This document shows, piece after piece, positions 18,343-19,506 of a stretch of DNA of 23,946 bases. A program made the position numbers and the translations under genes. How positions within the stretch are numbered: the stretch's first letter is position 1; every line of letters starts with the position of its first letter. The notes below the pieces were generated by a model that was not told the DNA's origin, ran no database searches, and saw only the letters and a list, made by a program, of their open reading frames with translations. This DNA comes from Oscillatoria sp. HE19RPO. GTDB taxonomy: Bacteria; Cyanobacteriota; Cyanobacteriia; Cyanobacteriales; Laspinemataceae. The DNA is taken from assembly GCF_024220515.1 (NCBI RefSeq), contig NZ_JAMXOT010000326.1, forward strand, positions 1 to 23,946. Direction: 5' to 3'.

Positions 18343-19506
18343 ATGAAATGTATGATCGTTGAGTTACTGCTGTTGGGTATTTTATTGCCCGTTGATGTCG
18401 CCCAAGCTGCCGAGGTGAAACCCTTGCCAGCAGAGCAGTCCGGGGACAAGCTGGAATTTTCTGCCGAGGCGGCCAATCTGGATCCTCTATTTTTCCAACC
18501 CATTCAGGGCGATCGCGATCCGGTGTTGTTTACTAAACAGGTTGCCGGGGAGGGGACGGTTTACCCCCAGGACTTACGCATATTTGGAGAATCCCCCCTA
18601 AATGTAGAGGCGATTCGCGAATCGCCTCTACATTTAGGGTTGAATGTTACAGATGGCGTAAATCCTGACCCTCAAGGTGAGATTGCCCAAGGGGAACCCG
18701 CTACAGCACCGGAGGGAACCGCCCCCCGCCAAGGGACTCCCTTACATCGCGAGATTCCCGGGGAACAACCCTTCATTCCCCAACGCATCCCCTTTCGCCC
18801 GCGCACGGATGTTACCACTCAAAGCAAACCCTATTTGGCTTCTCCGGGGATTACGGTGATGACCCCCTCGGGTTATGGTGCCGGTTGGGGAAGTGCGGGA
18901 TTTGGGGTGGGTTTACAGGAACGAACTCGGTTTACGGATAGCAGTGATGGGGTTGCCGGATTCGGCATCGGGTTTGGCAATCCTCGGGAAAATATTGGCT
19001 TAACCGTTGGTGTGACGGTGACGGATTTATGGGGCGATGCCTTTGAGGATGGCAGTGTGAGTTTAAAATTACATCGGCAATTGCCGAACGATTTTGGCAT
19101 TGCGGCAGGGGTGCAGGGAGCGCTCACTTGGGGAGAAACCGATGGCGGAACCTCTGGGTATGGTGTGGTCACAAAACGGTTTGTTTTGGATGACCCCGAG
19201 AACCTTTGGAGCCAAGTGTATGTGACCCTGGGGGTCGGAGGTGGACAGTATCGCTCTGAGTCGGATATTGAGGCGGGAGAGGGGACTGTCGGACTGTTTG
19301 GTTCGGTGGCATTACGGGTTGCACCTCCCGTCAGTGCGATCGCCGAATGGACGGGTCAAGACCTCACTTTGGGGGTCTCCGTGGTGCCGTTCCGGAATAT
19401 TCCTTTGGTGATTTCTCCCGCGATTACGGACATTACCGGCAGCGCTGGAGATGGAACAAGGTTTATTCTCGGGATTGGTTATGGGTTTACGTTTGATCGG
19501 TTCTAG
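18343..19506 (+). CDS. Secreted protein with Pro-rich N-terminal region and Gly-rich C-terminal domain, putative outer-membrane beta-barrel
   Basis: Signal peptide MKCMIVELLLLGILLPVDVAQAAEV. Alternating hydrophobic, Gly-rich strands (GFGVGL, GFGIGFG, IGLTVGVTVTD, VYVTLGVGGG, FILGIGYGFTFDRF). C-terminal Phe, typical of the OMP beta-signal. Confidence 0.55.
   Translation: MKCMIVELLLLGILLPVDVAQAAEVKPLPAEQSGDKLEFSAEAANLDPLFFQPIQGDRDPVLFTKQVAGEGTVYPQDLRIFGESPLNVEAIRESPLHLGLNVTDGVNPDPQGEIAQGEPATAPEGTAPRQGTPLHREIPGEQPFIPQRIPFRPRTDVTTQSKPYLASPGITVMTPSGYGAGWGSAGFGVGLQERTRFTDSSDGVAGFGIGFGNPRENIGLTVGVTVTDLWGDAFEDGSVSLKLHRQLPNDFGIAAGVQGALTWGETDGGTSGYGVVTKRFVLDDPENLWSQVYVTLGVGGGQYRSESDIEAGEGTVGLFGSVALRVAPPVSAIAEWTGQDLTLGVSVVPFRNIPLVISPAITDITGSAGDGTRFILGIGYGFTFDRF
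18598..18637. repeat. Perfect 40-bp palindrome CTAAATGTAGAGGCGATTCGCGAATCGCCTCTACATTTAG embedded in-frame inside the CDS (encodes LNVEAIRESPLHLG)
   Basis: Its own reverse complement. The same 38-bp core recurs intergenically at 21681..21730. Confidence 0.7.

Follow-up and report, generated by a model that had tools for sequence, protein, structure and literature searches.

The contig NZ_JAMXOT010000326.1 of the cyanobacterium Oscillatoria sp. HE19RPO, a stretch of 23,946 nucleotides that we call the window, holds two long perfect palindromes. The first lies in the coding sequence of a 387-residue protein: positions 18598-18637, CTAAATGTAGAGGCGATTCGCGAATCGCCTCTACATTTAG, equal their own reverse complement, are aligned with the codons and encode LNVEAIRESPLHLG. 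The original prediction stopped at these 40 bp; the perfect palindrome is slightly longer, 44 bp (CCC...GGG, 2 bp more per side), and a repeat search of the window extends it as an imperfect inverted repeat of 100 bp (Table 1). The second palindrome is where it had been predicted, in the intergenic spacer 83 bp upstream of the start of ureC (21813), with two perfect arms of 25 bp. A core of 38 bp is identical at the two sites; in 100 shuffles that preserve the dinucleotides, no match occurs at all. The coding copy is most probably a non-coding MITE (miniature transposable element with inverted repeats) of 100 bp, with a hairpin core of the repetitive extragenic palindrome (REP) type, that was mobilised in trans by a putative transposase, inserted in frame and tolerated.

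A Pfam search with the host protein returns no match. Its AlphaFold model is of low confidence (predicted local distance difference test, pLDDT, 44.8); it places 12 beta strands in the C-terminal half and leaves residues 15-185 without predicted structure, except for a helix of three residues. The strands lend a little weight to the earlier label of a beta-barrel gene; the Pfam search lends it none.

Close homologues of the protein occur in Oscillatoria acuminata and Laspinema. In an alignment of 14 sequences, a block of 35 residues, PQDLRIFGESPLNVEAIRESPLHLGLNVTDGVNPD, is present in the window protein and in P0001 and P0002, the two relatives nearest to it (95% and 91% identity), and is missing from all 11 other homologues, some of them equally close. 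On the DNA, the empty alleles L073 and L074, the latter from Laspinema palackyanum, read GTTCACCCC followed directly by CAAGGTGAG, with the junction at GTTCACCCC/CAAGG. The filled alleles (window, L075 and L076) are longer by exactly 105 nucleotides, or 35 codons: a 100-bp unit that starts with CAGGACTTACGC and ends with GCGTAA(A/G)TCCTG, and a repeated 5-mer. Precise excision of the element would restore GTTCACCCCCAAGG. The comparison of orthologues, proposed at the outset as a test, favours insertion. It also replaces the unit first put forward, a 40-bp palindrome encoding 13-14 residues, by an element of 100 bp bounded by terminal inverted repeats (TIRs) and accompanied by a 5-bp target-site duplication (TSD).

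That the 35-residue segment is ancestral, and was deleted by the relatives without it, has next to no probability. The bare pattern of presence and absence agrees with it, and nothing more does. The segment has TIRs and a duplicated 5-mer at its borders and is one member of a multi-copy family; its carriers are the three closest sequences only, with 11 of 11 more distant aligned homologues devoid of it. Deletion in the relatives is excluded because the TSD is present. Insertion, which we retain, would have taken place in an ancestor shared by the window organism and the two sampled relatives closest to it.

The family was defined by a scan of one genome per species with the core GTAGAGGCGATTNNNNAATCGCCTCTAC, the kind of search that the original prediction had called for, and the core is found at no fewer than 72 loci, i.e. 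at least 72. Among the matches listed, most loci come from uncultured and cultured Laspinema, Oscillatoria sp. S11.Bin022, Phormidium pseudopriestleyi FRX01 and an uncultured cyanobacterium, and 54 of 76 copies have CGCG at the centre of the core. As had been stated from the letters, the core is not HIP1: its centre is TTCGCGAA and the HIP1 octamer is GCGATCGC. An unrelated HIP1 site does lie near the element, at 18509-18516.

Comparison of the flanks gives the layout of the family: 13-bp TIRs CAGGACTTACGCA/TGCGTAAGTCCTG, two variable arms and a conserved centre ...CCCTAAAT-GTAGAGGCGATTCGCGAATCGCCTCTAC-ATTTAGGG.... Of 21 copies in which both termini were detected, 14 measure exactly 100 bp, the modal length. 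A profile built from full-length copies matches 88 sites in the approximately 0.5 Mb of sequence examined, mostly intergenic; the copies in genes are a minority. In 24 full-length copies the 5-bp flanks agree at a mean of 3.25 positions out of five, against 1.36 when permuted, a value that none of 5000 permutations reaches. The duplicated 5-mers are exact in six copies and share no target consensus. A MITE is defined by TIRs, by insertion polymorphism and by duplication of a variable target over a fixed length. The family has all of these, in dispersed copies without a transposase gene, and its modal length of 100 bp falls within the range of about 70-300 bp expected of such elements. A dispersed palindromic element tolerated inside a coding sequence, as originally proposed, is borne out by the family of copies, by the empty and filled alleles and by further in-frame copies.

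Target duplications arise in transposition from a staggered cut and fill-in. Here, 13-bp TIRs and a 5-bp TSD would be the signature of such a cut by a transposase acting in trans, putatively of the DDE type. Along the family alignment, conservation peaks in the centre and reaches its minimum in the arms. The termini are separable from the core: at L052 3780-3856, a 77-bp sequence has the ends CAGGACTTAC...GTAAGTCCTG, an unrelated interior and no GTAG hairpin. Judging by these shared termini, one transposase probably mobilises MITEs of more than one family. Searches of plasmid, viral and Rfam collections give no match to the element, and literature searches with the strings of termini, core and peptides return only unrelated primers and names. 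We regard the family as probably undescribed so far, although of a known kind.

Table 1. Features of the two MITE copies, of the host gene and of related hairpins in genes of REP-associated tyrosine transposases (RAYTs). Positions are those of the window unless a locus is named.
Feature	Position	Strand	Remark
Host open reading frame, 387 aa: signal-peptide-like N-terminus, variable linker, conserved beta-rich C-terminal domain	18343-19506	+	
Left TSD copy, ACCCC	18563-18567		Empty L073, L074 vs filled window, L075, L076
MITE copy 1, exactly 100 bp, in-frame peptide QDLRIFGESPLNVEAIRESPLHLGLNVTDGVNP	18568-18667		Single long hairpin fold
Left TIR, CAGGACTTACGCA	18568-18580		
Perfect 44-bp palindrome	18596-18639		Direct reading of the sequence
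28-bp GTAG...CTAC "double-foot" REP-type hairpin core, GTAGAGGCGATTCGCGAATCGCCTCTAC	18604-18631		Class definition PMC6006769
Right TIR, GGCGTAAATCCTG, two mismatches to consensus TGCGTAAGTCCTG	18655-18667		
Right TSD copy, ACCCT (AACCC in L076), each one change from ACCCC	18668-18672		
MITE copy 2, about 88 bp, short degenerate variant, eroded termini, uncertain ends	21661-21748		Profile match 21670-21744
Perfect 50-bp palindrome, MITE copy 2	21681-21730		
Second copy of the 28-bp GTAG...CTAC core	21692-21719		
RAYT-like genes with a perfect in-frame GTAG...CTAC 28-mer after the HUH motif	L008 7475-7999; L048 295-867	-; -	
Further GTAG...CTAC 28-mers in or beside RAYT-like genes	L077 3271-3298; L078 3274-3301 and 3611-3638		One of the two L078 copies just downstream of the gene

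The insertion was probably tolerated for three reasons: the reading frame is kept, the frame used holds no stop and the site is a fast-evolving, probably disordered linker. The frame is kept because 100 and 5 nucleotides add up to 105. The window copy is free of stops in the frame used; the three filled alleles have GGA where the consensus in the same orientation has TGA (TTTTGAGAAT vs TTTGGAGAAT). This frame is open in seven of 35 aligned copies, of which three are confirmed full-length copies within coding sequences (the window, L021 and L020 755-845) and a fourth, L009, stands at the 5' edge of the xseA open reading frame (ORF). The insert (residues 75-109) falls between the signal-like helix and the conserved C-terminal domain, and its site is a fast-evolving linker, probably disordered; the protein that the copy entered would be of a secreted or outer-membrane type.

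Between two filled alleles, the ratio of nonsynonymous to synonymous substitution rates (dN/dS) is 0.06 over the 278 codons downstream of the insert, and the gene therefore stayed functional after the insertion. The ratio is 0.59 in the N-terminal region and 0.63 in the insert itself, which evolves like a linker. Each filled allele has private changes, and the palindrome is decaying in the manner of neutral DNA. L076 has lost the perfect symmetry by a G>A change in one arm, GTAGAAGCG, and the private changes of the window allele lie in its right arm; the perfection of the window palindrome is thus mostly a matter of youth, not of maintenance at the site.

Other genes carry the element as well. 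A scan of open frames with Pfam finds an in-frame copy in the large loop of a PHO4 phosphate transporter (the L020 copy above) and copies at the same site of a glycosyltransferase (GT1)-methyltransferase linker in two genomes (L030 and L021). At L068 1192-1520, three diverged tandem copies or variants stand in one open frame, the predicted C-terminal tail of an ECF-type sigma factor ORF. The copies in all three settings read ...VEAIRESPL.... The palindromic core has three distinct frames, NVEAIRESPLHL and KCRGDSRIASTF, both open, and a closed one (stop-M-stop-RRFANRLYI-stop). The idea that a palindrome encodes the same peptide whichever way it inserts holds for the core; it fails for the outer arms, which depend on orientation and usually contain stop codons.

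In protein databases, short ORFs have been called through intergenic copies (P0121, P0122, P0124 and P0126). A search of an index of 5.8 billion proteins with the element peptide is uninformative: it returns two candidates only and misses the known carriers. When the 36-residue window peptide is scanned exhaustively with HMMER against 1.84 billion representatives, six weak matches come out, three of them short ORFs through intergenic copies and three unrelated low-complexity repeats. Among these representatives, insert-carrying proteins are probably represented by insert-free members of their clusters.

The whole 100-bp unit folds as one hairpin, with free energies of -55.8 and -57.5 kcal/mol for the RNA of the two strands and of -29.9 kcal/mol for the DNA (z from about -9 to -11; z = -11 for the fold at -55.8 kcal/mol). 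A strand-specific RNA structure is rejected: the mean values for the two strands are -43.3 and -45.0 kcal/mol, and one strand is the lower in 21 of 35 copies. RNAalifold recovers the core helix alone, and the covariation in the core (three pairs) comes from a few copies with a variant core. The palindrome reaches on average 5.5 bp per side beyond the 28-mer. Variant subfamilies retain GATTCGCGAATC and exchange the stem in a complementary manner (AGGC/GCCT to GGTT/AACC). The element may accordingly be described as a mosaic repeat in which the hairpin would matter for propagation or be kept symmetric by hairpin-templated repair.

So stable a hairpin, one copy of which lies just upstream of the conserved ureC leader, could be a cis-element kept by the host: a protein-binding site, as had been suggested, or an RNA hairpin that is cut by RNase III, makes translation pause or stabilises the mRNA. 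The slightly reduced divergence inside the element, given below, also speaks for this reading, which we nonetheless consider very unlikely. Both window copies are missing at the orthologous sites of close relatives, and the copies are scattered over unrelated contexts, coding frames included, which leaves a protein-binding site unsupported. Furthermore, the fold has no strand preference, the arms decay and no Rfam family matches. Nor is the hairpin an intrinsic terminator: by direct reading, copy 1 is followed by ACCCTCAAGG and the palindrome of copy 2 by GGGGAATGCG, without a T-run. Nothing indicates that either window copy has a host function.

Copy 2, between a CHAT-domain gene and ureC, would be a second, older or truncated member of the same MITE family. 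It resembles an 89-bp form found in L065, against which its ends were estimated by eye. It is absent from the spacer of L. palackyanum (L074), both edges of which, the ureC leader and the end of the CHAT gene, can be aligned well. L075 again has the core downstream of its CHAT-domain gene, and the position there would fit copy 2. Compared with the consensus, both arms carry matching changes, CCCTAAAT>CCGTAAAT and ATTTAGGG>ATTTACGG, and it is because of them that the palindrome is a perfect 50-mer. A second family of GTAG-tagged hairpin repeats, GTAGGGTGGGCAATGCCCACC(CTAC), is also present in the window, as two direct copies that adjoin copy 2 (21608-21660) and as an inverted pair just upstream of the host ORF (18191-18242). 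The spacer between the CHAT gene and ureC is a mosaic of repeats, and L. palackyanum is without them.

The 28-mer GTAGAGGCGATTCGCGAATCGCCTCTAC has GTAG at its 5' end and CTAC at its 3' end, both lying at the foot of a long stem-loop, and so agrees with the double-foot REP definition, 5' GT[AG]G and 3' C[TC]AC. GTAG-tagged REPs are known in cyanobacteria, sometimes within genes (PMC3733652). Subclass 2.4 of the REP transposases TnpA_REP, or RAYTs, is marked by NH[IFV]H, WQ and YIxNNP. According to Quentin et al. (2018, PMC6006769), it occurs in "Cyanobacteria, Bacteroidetes and various phyla", and its tnpA_REP genes themselves carry in-frame insertions of "long double foot" REPs. Judged by its sequence, the window palindrome is a double-foot REP of the class associated with this subclass.

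The same 12-nt arms, with CATG at the centre, occur singly in contigs of unrelated, truly non-cyanobacterial phyla (no HIP1; GC content 0.34-0.59). In two of these contigs the hairpin is inside an ORF of IS200-like or RAYT type, where it encodes VEAIHESPL in the stretch that separates the HUH motif from the WQRNY...H region. Of the 120 best relatives of the RAYT-type protein, 86 could be parsed, and 84 of them have V[G/E]AIHE[S/L]PL at this position, some in tandem, and on the DNA these segments are perfect GTAG...CTAC palindromes. The variants of the peptide follow complementary changes in the arms: Ala GCG or GCA goes with S or L (TCG or TTG), and G or E (GGG or GAG) goes with Pro CCC or CCT. 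It is therefore the hairpin, as DNA or RNA, and not the peptide that is constrained in the RAYT genes. We considered the hairpin inside RAYT genes as a novelty and rejected it, as it has already been described for subclass 2.4 (PMC6006769).

These likenesses raise another explanation: that the element is no classical MITE, but a REP or REPIN-type repeat (REPIN: REP doublet forming a hairpin) spread by a RAYT, an HUH tyrosine transposase of TnpA_REP subclass 2.4, through hairpins of single-stranded DNA. The GTAG...CTAC double foot of the core, the near-identical 28-mers inside or beside RAYT-like genes of other phyla and the occurrence of subclass 2.4 in cyanobacteria, with its in-frame REP insertions (PMC6006769), all agree with it. 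So do the folding of the whole unit as one hairpin in single-stranded DNA and the presence of the core without MITE arms, beside other repeat modules (L010, L026, L017, L038, L069 and L045). What was moved in the window, however, is the whole TIR-bounded unit of 100 bp, with duplication of a variable 5-bp target. A conserved centre with variable arms is, moreover, the reverse of the REPIN layout, and tblastn finds no RAYT in the cyanobacterial loci examined. We thus hold this explanation to be unlikely.

Transposition of the IS200/IS605 type, by HUH enzymes, is directed to a short target of fixed sequence and is not known to duplicate it; nor is HUH or RAYT transposition known to give rise to a 5-bp TSD. 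The 100-bp unit does not behave as an HUH-mobile element without target duplication would; this does not necessarily hold for the core alone. In a mixed form, a RAYT-type REP would be the obligatory core of a TSD-generating MITE, HUH and DDE systems thus acting on one repeat; more radically, a subclass 2.4 TnpA_REP would itself insert long hairpins with a 5-bp staggered duplication. We give these two readings together a similarly small chance. If so, the persistence across subfamilies of perfect and compensated stems (AGGC/GCCT to GGTT/AACC, CCCTAAAT to CCGTAAAT and back) would reflect the need for a hairpin in mobility.

Against a MITE mobilised in trans by a DDE-type enzyme, several observations have to be set. 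Such an enzyme is suggested by the TIRs and the TSD. No autonomous insertion sequence (IS) or transposase with these termini is found in the approximately 0.5 Mb examined, where a search for solo termini, and for inverted termini spaced as in an IS, finds only genes for a STAND NTPase and a GDSL lipase between them. Two-sided changes of the stem outside the 28-mer stay complementary in 97 cases overall, with 61 expected (one-third); with clearly MITE-type flanks only, the figures are 16 and 19. The overall excess hints that the hairpin as such is being kept up, either through selection for mobility or through hairpin-templated repair. Finally, between two filled alleles the element is slightly less diverged than the variable flanks (5/100 vs 33/250, p=0.035), a difference that is not significant at third positions only (p=0.23). 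This marginal reduction leaves room for weak constraint or gene conversion.

Several kinds of repeat resemble the element in part. As reviewed in PMC10969869, REPs and MITEs are found within genes, and the window element behaves likewise. The closest parallel in behaviour is with the Rickettsia palindromic elements (RPEs; Ogata et al. 2000, 2002, as summarised in PMC10969869 and PMC3733652). These are also palindromic repeats, of about 100-150 bp, found in frame in unrelated protein-coding genes; the host gene gains a conserved peptide, typically within a loop or linker, and is not inactivated. The likeness is one of behaviour, not of family: RPEs belong to the Rickettsia lineage, are unrelated in sequence and have a CGTC tag (PMC3733652) instead of the GTAG of the window core. 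Nearly half of them are in ORFs, as opposed to a minority of the 88 sites here, and TIRs with a 5-bp TSD are demonstrated for the window element.

The GTAG REPs of subclass 2.4 (PMC6006769; Di Nocera et al. 2013, PMC3733652) share with the core the GTAG/CTAC feet, the long perfect stem and the 12-nt arms, around CATG in place of CGCG; their hairpins in genes, already reported with the frame intact, read V[E/G]AIHESPL and that of the window VEAIRESPL. The window hairpin differs in that it moved as the core of a larger unit, which measures 100 bp, has TIRs of its own and makes a 5-bp TSD. Other bacterial MITEs (Correia/NEMIS, ERIC and RUP; Nezha and the Anabaena PCC 7120 MITEs cited in PMC10969869) are likewise small, non-coding and bounded by TIRs and a TSD, with many dispersed copies, insertion polymorphism, a long transcribed hairpin and an occasional in-frame fusion to an ORF; in the window element, unlike these, the central REP-type hairpin is more conserved than the termini. 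REPINs (Bertels and Rainey 2011, PMC3116915) and the bacterial interspersed mosaic elements of E. coli are also symmetric hairpin units built on REPs, with compensatory changes in the stem and a mosaic of REPs and other short modules. A REPIN, however, consists of two conserved inverted REPs around a variable spacer, is extragenic and accompanies a single-copy RAYT (PMC3116915). The window element has a single central palindrome, variable arms, TIRs and a TSD, and some of its copies are in genes, so that it departs from a REPIN in layout and in location.

The window has further repeats. Another GTAG...CTAC hairpin, GTAGTCTTTTCGCCTTACAAAAAGACTAC, is at 740-768, within the ORF 343-948. A long imperfect palindrome of 58 + 58 nt (13251-13367; 72% complementary) contains CGTGAC...GTCACG motifs, and a similar hairpin, CCTCGTGACGTGGCTGAAGCGCGTCACGAGG, abuts a truncated MITE copy at about 4150-4190 of L041; this suggests another repeat family that inserts into or beside the MITE. 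Downstream of ureC lie a 65-bp tandem repeat (23599-23791; three copies, 99% matches) with the hairpin GTAGGGGCGCTTCGAGAAGCGCC inside, and a 26-bp tandem repeat that runs up to the end of the window (23807-23946; 5.4 copies, 100% identical). The CHAT-domain gene holds a tandem repeat of 12 nt, TACTCCCACAGA (19697-19848; 12.8 copies), in its N-terminal part; the repeat gives rise to a peptide repeat of four residues.

Directly upstream of the host gene, the minus strand encodes an 881-residue homologue of the eukaryotic major vault protein (MVP; 15333-17978), with Vault repeats and the MVP shoulder domain (E down to 2e-67); it is syntenic in L. palackyanum (L074 3021-5669, minus strand). At 14470-15215, a XisH gene (Pfam E = 3e-50) is followed by an overlapping ORF of 113 residues, possibly XisI; XisH and XisI are a pair of heterocyst-excision accessory proteins in many filamentous cyanobacteria. 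On the minus strand within ureC (21968-22254), antisense to the gene, Rfam reports the Helicobacter 5' ureB small RNA with 84 bits, a match that probably reflects conservation of the urease coding sequence underlying the model and not a small RNA here. A lone, marginal match to CRISPR-DR28 (2398-2421, minus strand; 37.3 bits, with a gathering score of 35) has no array around it and is probably due to chance.

The association of a TIR/TSD element with a RAYT-class hairpin offers a modest lead on the recombination of repeat modules. When these genomes are annotated, ...NVEAIRESPLHLG... (in the other open frame, KCRGDSRIASTF) can serve as a marker peptide for segments derived from the element and for spurious small ORFs. 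The host gene provides a natural case, with both empty and filled alleles, in which a mobile element has added 35 residues to a protein that is still under selection. It shows that insertions of MITEs and REPs can lengthen the linkers of cyanobacterial proteins, as RPEs do in Rickettsia.

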